From Candidatus Marinacidobacterium sp. (GTDB taxonomy: Bacteria; Acidobacteriota; Vicinamibacteria; Marinacidobacterales; Marinacidobacteraceae), in NCBI GenBank assembly GCA_965243415.1, contig OZ251549.1, forward strand, positions 3,899,802-3,963,801: a DNA stretch of 64,000 nt, written 5' to 3'. The notes beneath the pieces are model-generated. The model saw only the letters and a program-made list of their open reading frames with translations, did no database searches and was not told the DNA's origin. Position numbers and translations under genes: made by a program. This document shows, piece by piece, positions 53,180-60,304 of the stretch. How positions within the stretch are numbered: position 1 is the first letter of the stretch; each line of letters starts with the position of its first letter.

Positions 53180-54826
53180 CTACGGCTCCACCCCGAAGGC
53201 CCGGCAGATCGCGTCCAGTTTCTCGACGACTTCCGGGTGGATCTCCGCGGGCTCCATGAGCGCGGCGATCTCGTGATACCGGGTGTACGAGAGGTCGGGC
53301 AACCCGGCGGCGGCCAGCAGCGGCGGCAGCAGTTCCGTGCGCGCCTTGGTATTCCTCAGGAAAGGGTGGTCCTCGAAAGGGTTCGCCGCCACCGCCGGCG
53401 GGTAGTCGTTCCGCCACGAGTCCCGCAACCCGGCGACCGCGGCCGCATCGCCGCCGGTCTCCCGTTCCACGAAGCGCGCCAGCGCCTCCGGGTGGAGCAG
53501 GTAACTCTCGATCTCGTACCGCCGCCAACGCAGCCGCTGCAGCCCGGCACCGGTGATCTCCGTCTCCGGAACCGCCGCCCGGGCGTCCCCGTCGCGCAGT
53601 TCCAGCCCGACGAAATGCCCTCCCGCGAGTCGCAGCGCTTCGAAGTGGTCCCGCGAACGAACCCCCGGCGTACCGCTCTCGGTCTCGAAGACCGCCGGCT
53701 TCCACATGAGTTCGGTGGCCAGCAGCCGTTCGGCGCGATGCTCCAGCCGCCGGGCCCAGGCGCCCAGGATCTCCCAGTCGGTGTAGTCCTCCACATAGAG
53801 GATTCCGCGGGCGCCGGCCATCTGCACGACCTCCGAGTTGGAAAGGACGCGCAGCGAGGTGAGCAGCCGACTCTTCTCCACATCGTCCGCCGCCATGCGC
53901 GGCCGGTCCAGCAGGATGCAGAGGTCGCGCGGCTCGACGGCATCCACGACCGCCTCCGAGTGCGTCGCGCAGATGAGTTGGCAGCGCTGCCGGGCCGCCA
54001 CCCGGCGCAACTCCCGCCAGATCGAGTTCTGCAGGATCAGGTGCAGATGCGCATCCGGTTCGTCCAGCAGCAGCACTGCCCCGGGCCGCACCTGCAGCAC
54101 CGCCAACAACATCAGGACCTGGTGGAACCCGCTTCCGGCACTGGCGACATCGAGCGGCGGCGCCGTCTCCGACTCCCGGTACTCCGCGACCACATGCGCC
54201 CCGCCGGCGAACGGTTCCAGCAGCCGGTAACCGAACAGGCGGTCCACGGATTCCACCAGCGCCTCCCAGGCCGGGGGGTTCCCGTGCGCTTCCACCAGCA
54301 GGTTGCGCAGGGTGTCCCCCGCCCGCCCGACATGGAGCAGTTGTTCGACCTTCGGCCAGTGGTACAGCGGCTCGTCTATGACCACCCCGTCCATCGGCGG
54401 AGCGAAGACCACCGGGAAATCCATCCGCTCCAGGACCTCGGGTTCCGCATCGGCGGCCGGCCGGATATACATCTGTTCGACGGTGTCCGCCCGGAACTCC
54501 ATCTTCACCGACCCGGCGTCATGGCGGACGCCGATTTCGAGGATGTCCCGATAGACGCGGTCCTTCCAGAGGTGGTCGAACGCCCGGAGCGGCACCACCG
54601 AGAACGATTGGCGGGAGATCGGGACATGGTCGTAGCCGTGCTTGCCGCGCTCCCGCGCCCCGACTTGGGCTCTCCAGTGCCGGAGAGCGAAGGCCCAAGC
54701 GGCGATGCCCTGCAGCACCGTGGTCTTGCCGGTGTTGTTGGGGCCGGCGACGACCAGGTGGCCCGGCAGCCGGAAGTCGAAGTCCCCGAACCGCTTGAAC
54801 TTCCGGACGGAGACTTCCCGGATCAT
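53180..54826 (-). CDS. ABC-type (AAA_15/21-like) ATPase fused to a TOPRIM/DUF4435-like domain (OLD-family or fused PARIS AriA-AriB-like)
   Basis: In-frame ATG 54826 (GGAGGG upstream). Walker A GPNNTGKTT, signature-like SAGSGFHQ, Walker B LLLDEPDAHLH, H-loop CATHS. C-terminal ILYVEDYTDWEIL, LELRDGD and RRYEIESYLL resemble TOPRIM/DUF4435 acidic motifs. Confidence 0.7.
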   Translation of the reverse strand: MIREVSVRKFKRFGDFDFRLPGHLVVAGPNNTGKTTVLQGIAAWAFALRHWRAQVGARERGKHGYDHVPISRQSFSVVPLRAFDHLWKDRVYRDILEIGVRHDAGSVKMEFRADTVEQMYIRPAADAEPEVLERMDFPVVFAPPMDGVVIDEPLYHWPKVEQLLHVGRAGDTLRNLLVEAHGNPPAWEALVESVDRLFGYRLLEPFAGGAHVVAEYRESETAPPLDVASAGSGFHQVLMLLAVLQVRPGAVLLLDEPDAHLHLILQNSIWRELRRVAARQRCQLICATHSEAVVDAVEPRDLCILLDRPRMAADDVEKSRLLTSLRVLSNSEVVQMAGARGILYVEDYTDWEILGAWARRLEHRAERLLATELMWKPAVFETESGTPGVRSRDHFEALRLAGGHFVGLELRDGDARAAVPETEITGAGLQRLRWRRYEIESYLLHPEALARFVERETGGDAAAVAGLRDSWRNDYPPAVAANPFEDHPFLRNTKARTELLPPLLAAAGLPDLSYTRYHEIAALMEPAEIHPEVVEKLDAICRAFGVEP

Positions 54827-55326
54827 TCTTCGCCCTCCGGGGCGTTCCGGCGATTCGTCATCGGGCGCACGCCGGGGGGAGCGTACCCGAACGGCCCGGC
54901 AGAGGCGGTTCCGGCCACGGCCCGTGGGGATCCGTCGAAGATGGCGTCGCCGGCAGGCCAACCGGGCCACTCGGCGCCTGCGACCGGTCCGGGTCCCGGA
55001 CGGCCGGGAACCCCCCGACAGCCTCCGGCGCCCTTGCCGGCGAGGTCGGGGGACACCGAAGACCTGGACGACCCGTGGCTCCATCCACCGCTCGCAGGGC
55101 ATTGCCGCGGACTCCGGCCGGAGCAGGGAAAGGCGGTCGTGCGTCCATCCGGCCCCAGCCTCCGGCCTCCGAGGACCCGAAGCACTGCTCTCGCCGCCCA
55201 GGCGCCGCGGCGGCCAAGGTCGCCGCCGCGCGTGTCGCCCGGCGCCCCTCTCGACCACGATGCTCCGGTTAGGATGCAGGGCGGCGGATCGAACACTCCC
55301 CCCGGCCACTCCTCGGGCCATCCACC

Positions 55327-56892
55327 ATGTCATCGCCCCTCCCGGACATAGATTTCAACCGGATCGTCTCCCGCGGCGGCAGCCAGCGCGCAGCGTTCGA
55401 GGAACTCTCCTGTCACCTCGCCCGGGCCGACCATCCCGGCAACGGCGGATACCGCCGCCTGCAAGGCGCGGGCGGCGACGGAGGCGTGGAGTGTCTCCTC
55501 ACCCTGCCGGACGAACGCGTCCTCGGCGTCCAGGCGAAATTCGTGAGCGATGTCCCGCGGGCTCTCACGCAGGCCGAAAAGTCGTTTCGCACTGCCCTGC
55601 AGCAGCATCCCGACCTGACGGACTACATCGTATGCCTCCCGATCGATCCGACGGGGAGGACCGCTCGCAGGGGTCGCAGCGGCCAGGAAAAGATCGCCGA
55701 CTGGATCGAGAAACGAAAGGCCGACGCCGACCGACAGGGGCGCAGGATCCAGATCGAATTCTGGACCGAATCCGATCTGAGGGAACGCCTGCTCCGACCG
55801 CCTCGATCCGACGCCGCGATCCGTTACTACTTCGACCGGACACTGCTTTCCGAGGATTGGTGGGTCAACCATTGCAAACAGGCCCTCGACCTCGCCCGTC
55901 CCCGCTACACGCCCGAGCATTCGGTGGAGACGACGCCCACCGGCTGGTTCCACGCCTTCGGCCGAACCGCCGCCTGGAAGACGGAACTGCGGGAGCGTCT
56001 CACGACCTGGTCGGAAGCGACCCGCGATGACCTGAAGGATCTGCGCGAGGCTGCATCACGGCAACCTCGATCCTCCGATACGGAAGCGGACGGCTGGTCT
56101 CCGGCCTGGCCGAAAGAAGCCCTTGCGACCTTGAGCGCCGCAGTCGCCCAAGCCGACGGCTTCCGCTCCGGTTGCGACGCCCTCTCCACGGCCCTCGACG
56201 AGACCGAAAGGAAAACCTACGACCGTTGCGTAGAGCGCGGTTCGAGACTTCTCGACGACCTCCGTGCCCTCGCCGACATCCTCTCGACCGACCTGGACCG
56301 GCGGCATTTCCCCGGCGCCTCGACATCCCCCCGATTCCGCCAACATCATGCGGAATGGGCCGGCTCCCTCCCGGCAGACAATCTCGACCGCGTGCGGAGA
56401 GTTCTGGGGAACACGGAGACTCTTCATAACCGGCTGCGTTCCTCCGAATGCTCCCTCGCCTTCGAGTCGATCCTCTTCCTGACCGGCCCGGCGGGGGCCG
56501 GCAAGACGCACACTCTGTGCGACACCCTGACGAGCCGCGCCTCGGCCGATCTACGGACGGTGATGCTGTTCGGACACCAGTTCGACCCGGCCCGCAGTCT
56601 CGACGCGCAACTTGCCGCGAACCTCGCGCTTCCCCACGATCTGACGACCCCCACCCTCCTCGATCTCCTCGAGTCAGAGGGACGGACGCGTTCGGCGGCC
56701 GTTCTCCTGTGCCTCGATGCCGTGGACGAAGCGCAACACCGCGACCGGTGGCCCGATGAGATCCGCCGACTCGTCAGTCTCCTCGATGACCGTCCCCAAG
56801 TGCGTCTCTGTGTCGCCTGCCGGACCGCCTTCGCCAAGACCTGCCTTCCGCGCGGCTACGAGGAGCAGACCGTCGTGCACCCCGGTTTCTGA
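55327..56892 (+). CDS. Mrr-like PD-(D/E)xK nuclease domain plus P-loop STAND/NACHT-like NTPase (N-terminal part of an Avs-like protein)
   Basis: GDGGVEC...GVQAKF (Mrr-type D..QxK). Walker A LTGPAGAGKTH, Walker B VLLCLDAVDEA, sensor-like RLCVACR. It ends at TGA 56890-56892 inside the NTPase module. Confidence 0.7.
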   Translation: MSSPLPDIDFNRIVSRGGSQRAAFEELSCHLARADHPGNGGYRRLQGAGGDGGVECLLTLPDERVLGVQAKFVSDVPRALTQAEKSFRTALQQHPDLTDYIVCLPIDPTGRTARRGRSGQEKIADWIEKRKADADRQGRRIQIEFWTESDLRERLLRPPRSDAAIRYYFDRTLLSEDWWVNHCKQALDLARPRYTPEHSVETTPTGWFHAFGRTAAWKTELRERLTTWSEATRDDLKDLREAASRQPRSSDTEADGWSPAWPKEALATLSAAVAQADGFRSGCDALSTALDETERKTYDRCVERGSRLLDDLRALADILSTDLDRRHFPGASTSPRFRQHHAEWAGSLPADNLDRVRRVLGNTETLHNRLRSSECSLAFESILFLTGPAGAGKTHTLCDTLTSRASADLRTVMLFGHQFDPARSLDAQLAANLALPHDLTTPTLLDLLESEGRTRSAAVLLCLDAVDEAQHRDRWPDEIRRLVSLLDDRPQVRLCVACRTAFAKTCLPRGYEEQTVVHPGF

Positions 56893-56896
56893 GCTC

Positions 56897-59602
56897 ATGG
56901 ACCCTGCCACGGTGCGCAAGTTCTTGGTGCGCCACAACCTTCGACCACCGACGACGCCCCTCCTTCCCCCGGAGTTCTCCAACCCCCTCTACCTCCGCCT
57001 GGTCTGTGAGGCAGCACACGCCCAGAGGCTCGATTCCATCCCGGACGGCTGGGCCGGTATCCGAACGGGCATCGCCGAGTGGCTGGAGCACAGGGAGCAG
57101 GAATTCGCGCATTTCTTCAAAACTAAAAGAAAAGCAGCGGCCCTGAGGCGCTGTCTCCGTGCTCTCGCCGAAGAAGAAAACGCGGTTCGGGCAGGCATCC
57201 CGCGTACGCAAGCCGTTGACGCGGTAGCGGGAACCCTCGACGCACTGGGATACGGCGAACCTGGCCGAGTCGTCGACTGGCTGGTCGACACGGACATTCT
57301 GATCGAGGAACGCGATCCGTCATCCGATCCGCTCTCTCCGACCACCCGCCTTCGATTCGGGTTCGCCCGAGTCGGCGACTTCCTGAGGGCCCACCGCCTC
57401 CTCGATGCCGTTTCCGAGTCGCTGCCGGCCGCTGCCGCCCCGGGAGGCCGGCTCCACGACATCTGGCGTACCGACGACGAAGCCGGCCGCAACCGCAATT
57501 TGATCGGGGCACTGTCCGTGATCCTTCCCGAGACACATCGCGGCATCGAAGTCCCCGACCTCGTCTCCGATCCGGCGGCCCGCCGCACCGTCCTCGGCTC
57601 CTGGTGCGACAGCCTGTCATTGCGGGACCCGACTTTCTACACCGAAACCACGGCCCGGCTGGCGCGCGAGGCGCTGGGGATCGAAGAGTACGCCTACCGA
57701 ACGATGGATGCACTGCTGGCCAACTGCTGGCGTTGCTCGTGCCTGGACATCCGCCGAATCTCCCGCCTTCTTCGCAGTCTGCCACTGGCTAAACGCGACG
57801 CGCTCTGGTGCGTCCACCTCCACGAATCCTACGAGCTACACGGTTCCGCCCGCCGCCTCATCGAGGCAGTCTTGGGCACCCCACTTCCGCATCTGAAACC
57901 GGAGGAAACCGAGCGATGGACGGAGGCGCTCCTCTGGTTCACGGCGGCGGCAGACGGGCGCGTCCGCGACCATGCCACCCGAGCGGCGATCCTCCTGCTC
58001 CGTGCCCATCCGGCCTGTTGCGAGCCGGTGCTGGATCGTTTCCTCGACTGCGATGACGACATCGTTCGGGAGCGGACACTGCTGAGCATCTACGGCGCAC
58101 TGCTCGCCCTCAGAGATCCGGCAACGACTGCCTCCGTCGCGTCCACCCTGCGAGAGCGATTCATCGCCGATCCGACCGCCTTCGACAACGCCGCGATTCG
58201 GGATTTGCTTCGGTGCCTGATCGACTTGGCGAATCACCTTCAGAAGGACGGCCGCGCCATCCCTACGGACGGTCTAGACCGAAAGTGCAGCGAGAGTTGG
58301 AACCCCGACATCCCCACGGACGACGAGTGCAAACAGTATCGGATCTGCGACTTCTTTCAGCCGGTGGAGTACCTGAGCGACTTCGTCAGGTACACGCTTC
58401 TCTGCCTGAGCCGATGGGAGAAGCACCTGCTCCGACGGGAGATGGGACGGTGGATGATCCGCTACATCTCGGAGACCCTGGGCTACGAGGACTCGGACTG
58501 CTACCGCTACGACGCCCACATGGCAAAAGAGTACGGACCGGGGCGGAGCAAGCCGGTGTGGGCGGAACGGATCGGCAAGAAATACCAATGGATCGCCCTG
58601 CAGCGACTGGCGTCGCGCCTCCATGACCATGTCGCGCCGGAGAAACCGTGGTGGCGTTCCTCATCTCCGTCATCCCCGCTCATCCTTCCAACCCGGCGGC
58701 TCTTCGATCCGACGATTCGGACCGTGGAACCCCTGCCGGACGGTGATTCCGGATCGAGGATCGCGGCGCCCCGCATCGAAGCCGCCTCGGAAGACAACGA
58801 CTTTGCTTGGCTCAACCGCAGGAACGACCTGCCGGAGGCGCAGGCACTGATCGCCGTGACCGATGCGTCGGGCGCTGACTGGTGGCCCCTGCTCGTCTAC
58901 TGGGAAGGCGAGAAGGCGAATACCGGCAGCCGGCAGAGTTGGATCCATGTCTTTGCCTACATCGTCGAAACCGATGACTTCGGGATGGCTCTTCGGTTTC
59001 TGAACGGGCGAAACTTCTACGGGAAGTGGATGCCGGAGGGACGCGATCTCACCGGATTCGTGGGCGAGTATCCGTGGGGATCCGTGTTCGCCGACGCTCG
59101 GGGAAATCGGAGTCGATACGCCGAGCAAGAGGGACCTGGATGGGACACCGAGAGGAGCCCAGTACCGTTCGAGCCCGCCTGGAATCGGGTCTTCCCCGAC
59201 CACGGGTACGACGCAACGACCTCGGAATCGTCGTCGGTAACCGTCCCGTCTCCGACCCTGTTCGAGGGCGGCGACCTTTCCTGGGATTTCCGCGGCGGTT
59301 ACGCGGGCGCGGACGGCCGGACGGTTTTTCGGGAACCCGCCGGAGCGGATGGCGGCGCCATGCGGTTGGTGGCGGAGCGGACGGATTTCCGGCGCCGTCT
59401 GGCCGAATCCGGCAAGCGGCTGATGTGGACGCTTCTCGGCGAGAAGTTGATCGCCAACCCTCTGCCCCAGGCATGGCGGACTTTCAGTCAAGTGGCGTAC
59501 CTCGACGAAGACGGCGCGCTGCGAGTCGGGGAGCGACTGTTTCTCGACAACGAAAGCGCCACGGCGGCGCCCGGCTTCCGCAATCGCTTCGTCAAAGTGT
59601 AG
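56897..59602 (+). CDS. C-terminal continuation of the STAND protein (helical/HEAT-like region plus unknown C-terminal domain), in a different frame
   Basis: The frame is open from 56717 and the first ATG is at 56897, 5 nt after the upstream stop. It starts with the post-NTPase pattern FSNPLYLRLVCEA typical of NACHT/STAND arms. HEAT-like segment VRDHATRAAILLLRAHP...DDDIVRERTLLSIYGAL. Confidence 0.65.
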   Translation: MDPATVRKFLVRHNLRPPTTPLLPPEFSNPLYLRLVCEAAHAQRLDSIPDGWAGIRTGIAEWLEHREQEFAHFFKTKRKAAALRRCLRALAEEENAVRAGIPRTQAVDAVAGTLDALGYGEPGRVVDWLVDTDILIEERDPSSDPLSPTTRLRFGFARVGDFLRAHRLLDAVSESLPAAAAPGGRLHDIWRTDDEAGRNRNLIGALSVILPETHRGIEVPDLVSDPAARRTVLGSWCDSLSLRDPTFYTETTARLAREALGIEEYAYRTMDALLANCWRCSCLDIRRISRLLRSLPLAKRDALWCVHLHESYELHGSARRLIEAVLGTPLPHLKPEETERWTEALLWFTAAADGRVRDHATRAAILLLRAHPACCEPVLDRFLDCDDDIVRERTLLSIYGALLALRDPATTASVASTLRERFIADPTAFDNAAIRDLLRCLIDLANHLQKDGRAIPTDGLDRKCSESWNPDIPTDDECKQYRICDFFQPVEYLSDFVRYTLLCLSRWEKHLLRREMGRWMIRYISETLGYEDSDCYRYDAHMAKEYGPGRSKPVWAERIGKKYQWIALQRLASRLHDHVAPEKPWWRSSSPSSPLILPTRRLFDPTIRTVEPLPDGDSGSRIAAPRIEAASEDNDFAWLNRRNDLPEAQALIAVTDASGADWWPLLVYWEGEKANTGSRQSWIHVFAYIVETDDFGMALRFLNGRNFYGKWMPEGRDLTGFVGEYPWGSVFADARGNRSRYAEQEGPGWDTERSPVPFEPAWNRVFPDHGYDATTSESSSVTVPSPTLFEGGDLSWDFRGGYAGADGRTVFREPAGADGGAMRLVAERTDFRRRLAESGKRLMWTLLGEKLIANPLPQAWRTFSQVAYLDEDGALRVGERLFLDNESATAAPGFRNRFVKV

Positions 59603-59737
59603 GCCGGAGGCGAAGCGAACGGTCGAGGCGCCCGGACAGGCCGTTCCGAACGAAAGCGGGATCGCTACACTGACTCGCCGCGCCCGAACGGCAGGGGAAT
59701 CGGGCGCCCGCACCCACCGACGAGGAGGGAATAGAAC

Positions 59738-60304
59738 ATGACGAAGACCCGTAACCACCGAGTCCCCGGCGCCCGCGCCGTCCTCGCCTTCGCCCTTCCG
59801 GCGCTGGCGGCGGCCCTCGCCTGCTCGGCTCCACCGGCGGAGACGCCGCCGCCGGAAGAAACCGCGATGCCGGGGCCGGAGGATCGGAACCGTGAAGTCG
59901 TGCTCCGGTACTTCGAAGAAGTCATCAACGGTCGGAACCTCGACCTCCTGGACGAGATCCTGGCCGCGGACTGGATCGCCCACAACCCCGGCGAGCCGAA
60001 CGGGCGGGAGGGCCTGAAGCAGTACTTCGCGGGGATGTTCGAGGCCTTTCCCGAGGTCCACGCCGATGTGAAGCGCGTCGTCGCGGAGGACGACCTGGTG
60101 GTGACGCACTCGCACTACACCGGCGCCGTCGCCGACCGGGGCGACGACTGGGCGCCCGGCTCCGGCGCGACGGTGGATATCTTCCGTCTGGAGGACGGCG
60201 TGATCGTGGAGCACTGGGATGTGAACCAGCGCCCGATCCCGGAGAGTTCGGTGAACGGCAACACCATGTTCGACGGCGGAGCGCTCTACCGCCACCGCGA
60301 ATGA
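59738..60304 (+). CDS. SnoaL-like (NTF2 superfamily, ester-cyclase-like) lipoprotein
   Basis: Lipobox AAALACS. NREVVLRYFEEVINGRNLDLLDEILAADWIAHNP...DIFRLEDGVIVEHWDV. Confidence 0.8.
   Translation: MTKTRNHRVPGARAVLAFALPALAAALACSAPPAETPPPEETAMPGPEDRNREVVLRYFEEVINGRNLDLLDEILAADWIAHNPGEPNGREGLKQYFAGMFEAFPEVHADVKRVVAEDDLVVTHSHYTGAVADRGDDWAPGSGATVDIFRLEDGVIVEHWDVNQRPIPESSVNGNTMFDGGALYRHRE

Follow-up and report, generated by a model that had tools for sequence, protein, structure and literature searches.

A two-ORF Avs2 locus of Candidatus Marinacidobacterium sp. with a stop codon between the nucleotide-binding domain and HD1

Introduction

STAND/NLR switches are regarded as single-chain proteins in which NBD (the nucleotide-binding domain), HD1 (the first helical domain), and WHD (a winged-helix domain) clamp one nucleotide. 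The locus described here raises the question of whether such a switch can be encoded by two genes. In a 64,000-nucleotide stretch of the Candidatus Marinacidobacterium sp. genome (contig OZ251549.1 of assembly GCA_965243415.1, positions 3,899,802 to 3,963,801; this whole stretch is referred to as the window), an Avs2-family gene is present as two open reading frames, ORF A and ORF B, which meet between the NBD and HD1. An original prediction, made from the sequence alone, had recognized a STAND protein of the Avs type whose N-terminal effector resembles a nuclease and whose NTPase module is interrupted, and had left three explanations for the split: a sequencing error, an inactivating frameshift, or a naturally split two-gene variant. 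Matches to Avs2 profiles support that architecture, and the third explanation proved to be the best supported. We favor, with a probability of roughly 0.55, a maintained two-gene Avs2 whose second ORF would be translated by termination-reinitiation and whose two products would assemble noncovalently.

Results

A stop codon at a conserved glycine position separates two ORFs

ORF A occupies positions 55327-56892 of the plus strand (521 amino acids [aa]) and ends in a TGA at 56890-56892. After a spacer of four bases, GCTC, ORF B runs on the same strand from the ATG at 56897 to 59602 (901 aa); its frame is +1 relative to ORF A and is open already from 56717. The letters across the junction are CAC CCC GGT TTC TGA GCTC ATG GAC CCT, and the source annotation of the locus lists two proteins. 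These coordinates and frames, as originally predicted, were confirmed on the sequence, as were all of the quoted motifs: GDGGVEC...GVQAKF (D51, E55, Q69, and K71), Walker A GPAGAGKTH (residues 387-395), Walker B LLCLDAVDEA, the VVHPGF end of ORF A, and the ORF B motif FSNPLYLRLVCEA. The G+C content of the locus is ∼66%, compared to roughly 70% for most of the window. The features of the locus, with the evidence for each, are as follows.

55327-56892, plus strand: ORF A (effector, helical extension, and nucleotide-binding domain); Avs2 profile, AlphaFold predicted local distance difference test (pLDDT) score of 89.6
55327-55836, plus strand: predicted Mrr-like PD-(D/E)xK nuclease domain, aa 1-170 (D51, E55, Q69, K71); motif conservation and model topology
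55852-56463, plus strand: helical extension between effector and ATPase, aa 176-379; all-helical in the model
56464-56889, plus strand: STAND NBD, aa 380-521, with Walker A G387-T394, Walker B D464/E468, and R499; Pfam AAA_22/NACHT, invariant columns, Foldseek, and PDB entry 9o4e
56890-56896, plus strand: junction, TGA at the Gly codon of the family plus spacer GCTC; alignment with intact alleles and with the relative L003
56897-59602, plus strand: ORF B (HD1, WHD, helical sensor arm, and C-terminal sensor); Avs2 profiles, 9o4e, and a model with a pLDDT of 84.8
56897-57412, plus strand: HD1 (aa 1 to ∼95, with the FSNPLYL "GxP-type" motif) and winged-helix domain (aa ∼100-172); boundaries from the model, 9o4e residues 487 onward
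57422-58636, plus strand: helical TPR-like sensor arm, aa ∼176-580; all-helical model, EcAvs2 alignment to residue 986, and Foldseek match to 8dgc
58799-59566, plus strand: beta-rich C-terminal sensor, aa ∼635-890; model strands within 661-883, homologous to the terminase-binding domain of EcAvs2/SeAvs3

The break is present in independently obtained sequences. Logan contigs of four sequencing runs (X1, depth 204; X2; X3, depth 122; and X5) carry the same junction with zero indels, and so does an independent sponge-metagenome assembly (X4, loci L001 and L002), despite ∼10 single-nucleotide polymorphisms (SNPs) per kb nearby (∼1%). Sponge metagenomes are the origin of the related contigs, and TGA is used as an ordinary stop by the neighboring genes of the window. 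A taxonomic scan with AspS reached at most 50% identity among GTDB representatives.

Comparison with these relatives identified the primary lesion. Six intact alleles of the same clade (72 to 83% identical) read HPGF-GD-MDRATVH across the site, encoded as TTC GGN GAY ATG, with the codon after TTC listed as GGN/CGG/GCC. The window and L001/L002 (95% identical) read TTC TGA GCTC ATG and have their two ORFs out of frame, and L003/L004 (73% identical) read TTC TGA GAG ATG with both ORFs in the same frame. The window spacer is thus one base longer than both the 3-nucleotide (nt) spacer of L003 and the single Asp codon of the intact alleles. Because L003 has the same TGA in frame, the alignment places the primary lesion in the stop codon at the conserved Gly position, and the frame change of the window is a secondary 1-nt spacer difference rather than the frameshift lesion that had been considered at first. 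Deleting one T from the ggtttct run (56884-56890), the repair then proposed, does fuse the two frames mechanically. Judged by the relatives, however, the ancestral gene did not have this fused form, since the nearly invariant F521 would be lost in it. The start codon of ORF B corresponds to a Met that is already there in the intact proteins, two codons downstream of the Gly. That the spacer changed in length without consequence fits independent initiation of ORF B, since such a change is harmless only if ORF B uses its own ATG. As a separate observation, positions 56890-56897 of the window (TGAGCTCA) form a perfect 8-nt palindrome with a SacI site; L003 has TGAGAGA there.

ORF A and ORF B are collinear parts of an Avs2-family protein

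Both ORFs matched the same Avs2 profiles in order. The PADLOC profile PDLC02164 (Avs2) aligned with ORF A over profile positions 2-486 (E = 1.9e-91) and with ORF B over positions 493-1006 plus a second, later stretch (E = 3.1e-128). The NCBIfam Avs2 model NF041813, built on an EcAvs2-type N terminus, aligned with ORF A over positions 6-308 and with ORF B over 316-795, at 107 + 331 bits, below its 1000-bit equivalog cutoff. Because both ORFs match one Avs2 profile collinearly, their pairing is not due to chance. The only solved structure reached by sequence search was EcAvs2 with terminase (PDB 9o4e): ORF A residues 370-504 aligned with chain residues 325-457 (E = 6e-9), and ORF B residues 7-500 aligned with residues 487-986, plus a second stretch (E = 2.3e-42). 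On the evidence of these matches, ORF A and ORF B together make up a collinear STAND protein of the Avs2 family, in which effector, switch, and sensor do not form a single polypeptide but are distributed over two ORFs with TGA plus 4 nt between them. The effector is probably of the Mrr-like nuclease type, the commonest in Avs2. The locus had been called Avs4-like. Among the PADLOC and NCBIfam profiles, neither ORF matched any Avs type except Avs2, and the match to 9o4e is likewise to an Avs2 protein; Avs4 is ruled out by zero Avs4 profile matches, and resemblance to EcAvs4 is weak and limited to the N-terminal nuclease domain.

Homologues are nearly all single ORFs of about 1400 aa, a point on which a check had been suggested. 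Those of ORF B are almost all single chains of 1370-1445 aa; of the 2280 representatives that matched ORF A, the best 150 mostly have lengths of 1340-1620 aa. A GTDB scan with ORF B as the query returned zero relatives.

AlphaFold models of both ORFs, built from alignments of 47-48 homologues, were used to delimit the domains. The N-terminal domain has a modeled core (aa 20-103) of alpha-beta-beta-beta-alpha-beta topology (helix 20-35, strands 41-44, 56-59, and 65-70, helix 76-93, and strand 97-103), and D51, E55, Q69, and K71 are each at least 90% conserved across 48 homologues. When the N-terminal domains of six homologues were run on their own against Pfam hidden Markov models, no nuclease family was detected, and the best PDB profile match of this domain, the EcAvs4 N terminus, was weak (E = 0.39), in an alignment that pairs the E and QxK residues. 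The N terminus is called a putative Mrr-type nuclease on the basis of the conserved D...E...QxK residues, the model topology, and the literature on KpAvs2 of Klebsiella pneumoniae, in which HHpred detects an Mrr-family domain and a K71A mutant loses defense (PMC11564622). Most Avs2 homologues use Mrr-like double-stranded DNA nucleases (PMC13601566). At the end of the helical extension, directly before the NBD, residue 369 of ORF A (56431-56433) is Arg in the window and L001 and Trp in all other clade alleles; Trp is at least 90% conserved at this position in distant homologues.

The STAND module is divided between the two models. The NBD spans residues 380-517 of ORF A; its last strand is 515-517, and ORF A ends directly afterwards at HPGF. 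G387, K393, T394, D464/E468, and R499 are conserved in the family alignment, and a Foldseek search with the whole ORF A model returned AAA+/ORC/Cdc6 folds, with the AAA+ core dominating the matches. The first part of the ORF B model (helices 3-12, 25-42, 55-73, 82-91, 103-117, and 122-131, strands 135-139 and 150-154, and helix 157-170) comprises HD1 and WHD, which, like the NBD, align to 9o4e. The cut therefore lies within the NBD-HD1-WHD switch, in the loop that leads from the last strand of the NBD to the first helix of HD1 (ORF B 3-12).

ORF B is modeled as helical to about residue 580 and beta rich at 661-883, the arrangement of an Avs2-type helical sensor and beta-rich C-terminal sensor that also follows from the 9o4e alignments. 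The ORF B model matched the Avs3-terminase structure 8dgc (Foldseek E = 6e-7, probability 1.0, with low TM-scores), and residues 1067-1376 of an intact clade allele (P0005) aligned with chain residues 1124-1448 of 9o4e (E = 6.5e-10). In EcAvs2, this beta-rich "C-terminal sensor" binds the terminase ATPase domain, and the domain is common to Avs3 (PMC13601566). Because the last ∼300 aa of ORF B align with it, they represent the known Avs2/Avs3 C-terminal sensor, not the novel domain that had been suspected.

Split alleles fall into two deep lineages

The split was found in four alleles, namely the window, L001, L003, and a protein pair on another contig (P0056 and P0209, which differ from L003 at 14/538 and 28/902 residues), and these belong to two deep lineages. 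Both ORFs are open in all four, and every length difference among them is in frame. The tract linked to the TGA differs by ∼20% of nucleotides between the two split lineages (31/180 nt over the first 60 ORF B codons and 11/55 nt at the junction itself); because of this divergence, the sequences indicate that the split either is old or arose twice by convergence. In a tree built from the first 60 codons of ORF B, the split alleles fall together with a support of 0.92. Split-specific residues are clustered in the same region, at ORF B positions 3, 7, 12, and 14 (P3, R7, R12, and N/D14).

A pattern scan of JGI metagenomes for the split junction found none. Likewise, short matches among the representatives showed no enrichment near 520 aa that would point to other splits at this site; they were spread evenly from 218 to 1223 aa, as expected of fragments. 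One candidate for a third split, P0058 on L010 (500 aa, 36% identical to ORF A), was ruled out: at L010 7001-9191, this Avs2 homologue is cut after Walker B by an IS5-family transposase gene. Two further, distant Avs2-like proteins may be independent cuts at the same boundary. P0201 (492 aa, on a 2.4-Mb contig) has a stop 2 residues past HNGF, and P0154 has a frame shift between ITH and HGF, where its 90%-cluster mate P0208 reads through.

Split alleles show signs of selective constraint and a shared core

Ratios of nonsynonymous to synonymous substitution rates (dN/dS) were 0.25-0.40 for all pairs and were alike in split and intact alleles. For the clonal (most closely related) part of the window and L001, with 25 synonymous and 21 nonsynonymous differences, dN/dS was 0.29 (P for neutrality, 3.8e-5). 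Between the window and L003, dN/dS was 0.55 (P = 0.006) within 100 codons on either side of the junction; in neutral simulations of the same interval, 3% stayed stop-free. Of 188 alignment columns that are conserved across 38 distant homologues, 9-12 deviate in split alleles and 10-15 in intact clade alleles. Nuclease, Walker A/B, and sensor-1 residues are all retained in the split alleles. By these sequence measures, the split alleles show no signs of decay.

The history of the locus includes recombination, since segment trees conflict outside the first 60 ORF B codons. The core that bears the split (∼56000-57800) differs by 0-2% of nucleotides between the window and L001, compared to 4-13% in the flanks. 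Because the core is less diverged than its surroundings, this comparison suggests that it was shared recently across diverged backgrounds, by recombinational spread or a sweep. Over the wider interval 54800-58100, the comparison with L001 shows a local divergence trough at the split Avs2 core.

Genes adjacent to Avs2

Upstream of Avs2 in the window lies a divergent neighbor.

53180-54826, minus strand: 548-aa ABC-type ATPase (AAA_21/AAA_15) with a Toprim-like C-terminal part

This ATPase-Toprim gene stands beside Avs2 at every clade locus (L001, L003, L005, L007, and L009 among them). It is found as well at L050 (3025-4671) and L052 (2809-4455), with an Avs2 that is 56% identical and with different flanks. 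Its product is 84% identical in L003 and 75% in L050, with Avs2 identities of 56-77%. The two genes may be a co-inherited defense pair or simply neighboring systems; because intact alleles have the ATPase-Toprim gene beside them as well, its presence is not tied to the split. A single-chain Avs2 homologue with 38% identity, located within a type I restriction-modification operon (L051 1-14230; hsdM, hsdS, Avs2, a HicA-like gene, and hsdR), lacks this neighbor. Downstream of Avs2, the window (59603-60304), L001, L005, and L008 have a SnoaL-like gene, and in L003, L007, and L009 a DUF3500 gene and the Avs2 stop overlap by 4 nt. Across the alleles, the C-terminal ∼25 residues of Avs2 exist in two versions.

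Discussion

If the two-gene Avs2 is maintained, as we favor, its origin and action may be pictured as follows. A GGN-to-TGA change at the Gly codon after HPGF would have ended the first polypeptide at the NBD/HD1 loop, and the Met two codons downstream would have become the start of a second. Since stop and start are just 3-4 nt apart, ORF B would be translated off the same mRNA by termination-reinitiation. The products of ORF A and ORF B would then reassociate noncovalently around the nucleotide and, as in EcAvs2, through contacts of the helical extension and the sensor. If EcAvs2 and KpAvs2 are a guide, the sensor would bind a phage large terminase (or some other trigger), which would lead to ATP-dependent tetramerization, and the tetramer would juxtapose four Mrr-like nuclease domains, with indiscriminate DNA cleavage and abortive infection as the expected defense activity. 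KpAvs2 acts by abortive infection through nonspecific DNA degradation (PMC11564622). That each half is modeled confidently, with the cut in an interdomain loop, is consistent with such a division of labor. The fuller version of this hypothesis, which we consider evenly balanced between right and wrong, is that of a heteromeric STAND/NLR-like receptor with a pocket built in trans (NBD from one chain, HD1-WHD from the other), derived from one nonsense mutation upstream of a preexisting Met, kept by selection and spread by recombination, with the ORF B N-terminal changes (P3, R7, R12, and N/D14) being adaptive.

Comparison with characterized systems shows which of these elements have precedents. 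KpAvs2 resembles the locus in its N-terminal Mrr-family nuclease, which is a prediction for the locus, with the catalytic Lys numbered K71 in both, in the helical bundle between nuclease and NTPase, in the STAND NTPase, and in the long Avs2-type C-terminal sensor. However, it is a single polypeptide whose operon also encodes a radical-SAM protein and Avap2, whereas the locus has two ORFs, lacks radical-SAM and Avap2 accessory genes, and has the divergent ATPase-Toprim neighbor. EcAvs2 in complex with the PhiV-1 terminase (9o4e; PMC13601566) aligns with the locus over NBD-HD1-WHD, the TPR arm, and the C-terminal sensor, and the helical extension has been described in both EcAvs2 and KpAvs2 (PMC13601566, PMC11564622). 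On the model of EcAvs2, sensing of the terminase ATPase domain and tetramerization would be expected of the locus product. In contrast to the locus, EcAvs2 has a different, uncharacterized effector and is a single chain, uninterrupted at the position that corresponds to the break (roughly residues 474-480). SeAvs3 (8dgc) shares the sensor-arm fold of the ORF B model and the C-terminal sensor (PMC13601566) but belongs to another family, carries a Cap4-type nuclease, and is about 2000 aa long. A split-TPR Avs1 variant is, like the locus, distributed over more than one gene (PMC13601566); there the cut falls in or before the sensor and leaves NBD-HD1-WHD on one chain, whereas here it falls within the switch. 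Avs2 with an Mrr nuclease and split Avs systems cut in the sensor were thus already known (PMC13601566); the element for which the papers searched gave no precedent is a maintained cut between NBD and HD1.

Several observations weigh against a maintained two-gene system. The NBD/HD1 cut divides the nucleotide pocket, and we found no described precedent for a maintained cut at this boundary in the literature searched; the known split Avs systems are cut in or before the sensor (PMC13601566). The split was confirmed solely in the sponge-associated clade, in 4 of ∼11 clade alleles, and is absent among more distant full-length homologues. No Shine-Dalgarno (SD)-like sequence was found before ORF B, and RNA folding around its start is not clearly weaker than in intact alleles. 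Mosaicism at the locus is strong: over its C-terminal 350 codons, L001 equals the intact L005, and P0210 is an intact recombinant with an L003-like C-terminal half. In run X5, a window-type split allele occurs together with an L008-like allele, as would be expected of a segregating null; the latter has the L008 state at 24/25 variant positions and one base fewer at 56894, and is probably intact. Finally, recombination with intact alleles could import selected-looking sequence, which would weaken the arguments from dN/dS and from the lack of decay. Regarding translation, about half of the local genes, Avs2 itself included, have no SD sequence, and nearby genes in the clade are coupled without a clear one, as in the 4-nt Avs2/DUF3500 overlap. 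A promoter scan within ORF A gave nothing convincing, and a look for RNA runs identified none.

The strongest competing explanation, which we rate as possible and clearly behind a maintained pair, is an Avs2 killed by the nonsense mutation, of which a null allele segregates in the symbiont population and is kept tidy by recombination with intact alleles. Defense genes are frequently lost, and the bisected pocket, the missing SD sequence of ORF B, the restriction to one clade, the strong mosaicism, and the joint presence of intact and split alleles even in one run (X5) would all be accounted for. Such a null allele is harder to reconcile with the ∼20% nucleotide difference across the TGA-linked tract, through which TGA, ATG, and open frames have nevertheless been kept in both lineages. 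Nor is there further decay after the spacer indel: the four split alleles contain zero secondary lesions, and they have lost family-invariant residues no more often than intact alleles have. The dN/dS of 0.29 was also obtained in the part of the window and L001 that coalesces more recently than the flanks.

It is improbable, in our estimation, that the halves have become sub- or neofunctionalized, with ORF B acting as a terminase-binding sponge or as the partner of another NBD protein, or with ORF A as a nuclease-NBD module under other control, possibly that of the ATPase-Toprim neighbor. Constraint on both ORFs would be compatible with this idea, as would the presence of the 548-aa ATPase-Toprim gene beside clade Avs2 in two different genomic contexts and the requirement of KpAvs2 for accessory proteins that bind its helical extension (PMC11564622). 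However, the ATPase-Toprim gene accompanies intact alleles too. Residues of the joint pocket are moreover kept on both sides of the cut, with Walker A/B and R499 in ORF A and NPL in ORF B, as one would expect of halves that still cooperate.

Recoding into one protein, which in the window would take +1 ribosomal frameshifting near CCC-GGT-TTC-TGA and in L003 read-through of the TGA, is very unlikely. Judging from the letters, a stop at the shift site and the upstream CCC-G Pro codon could favor +1 slippage, and the TGA of L003 is in frame; yet two different mechanisms would be needed at one site in two lineages, and tRNA-Phe on UUC would re-pair poorly in the +1 frame. The local RNA at the junction is no more structured than its shuffles (z-score, +1.5), an ATG is conserved 3-4 nt downstream in all split alleles, and TGA is a normal stop here. 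Finally, although the break adjoins a short T run, the chance that a single intact gene was missequenced or misassembled is negligible, and we exclude such an error, given an identical junction in four runs (depth up to 204) and in assemblies from an independent study with ∼1% SNPs nearby, and a base substitution to TGA also in a 73%-identical relative.

What the locus means depends on which of these explanations holds. Were it a null allele, it would represent ordinary turnover of defense genes in sponge symbionts, of interest only for the way in which recombination masks decay. If the maintained two-gene Avs2 is correct, one nonsense mutation beside an internal Met can turn a one-gene defense into a two-gene one, and the locus would offer a ready-made split system for studies of activation and stoichiometry. 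More generally, an Avs2 that works when cut at the NBD/HD1 boundary would mean that a STAND/NLR switch can be rebuilt from two proteins.

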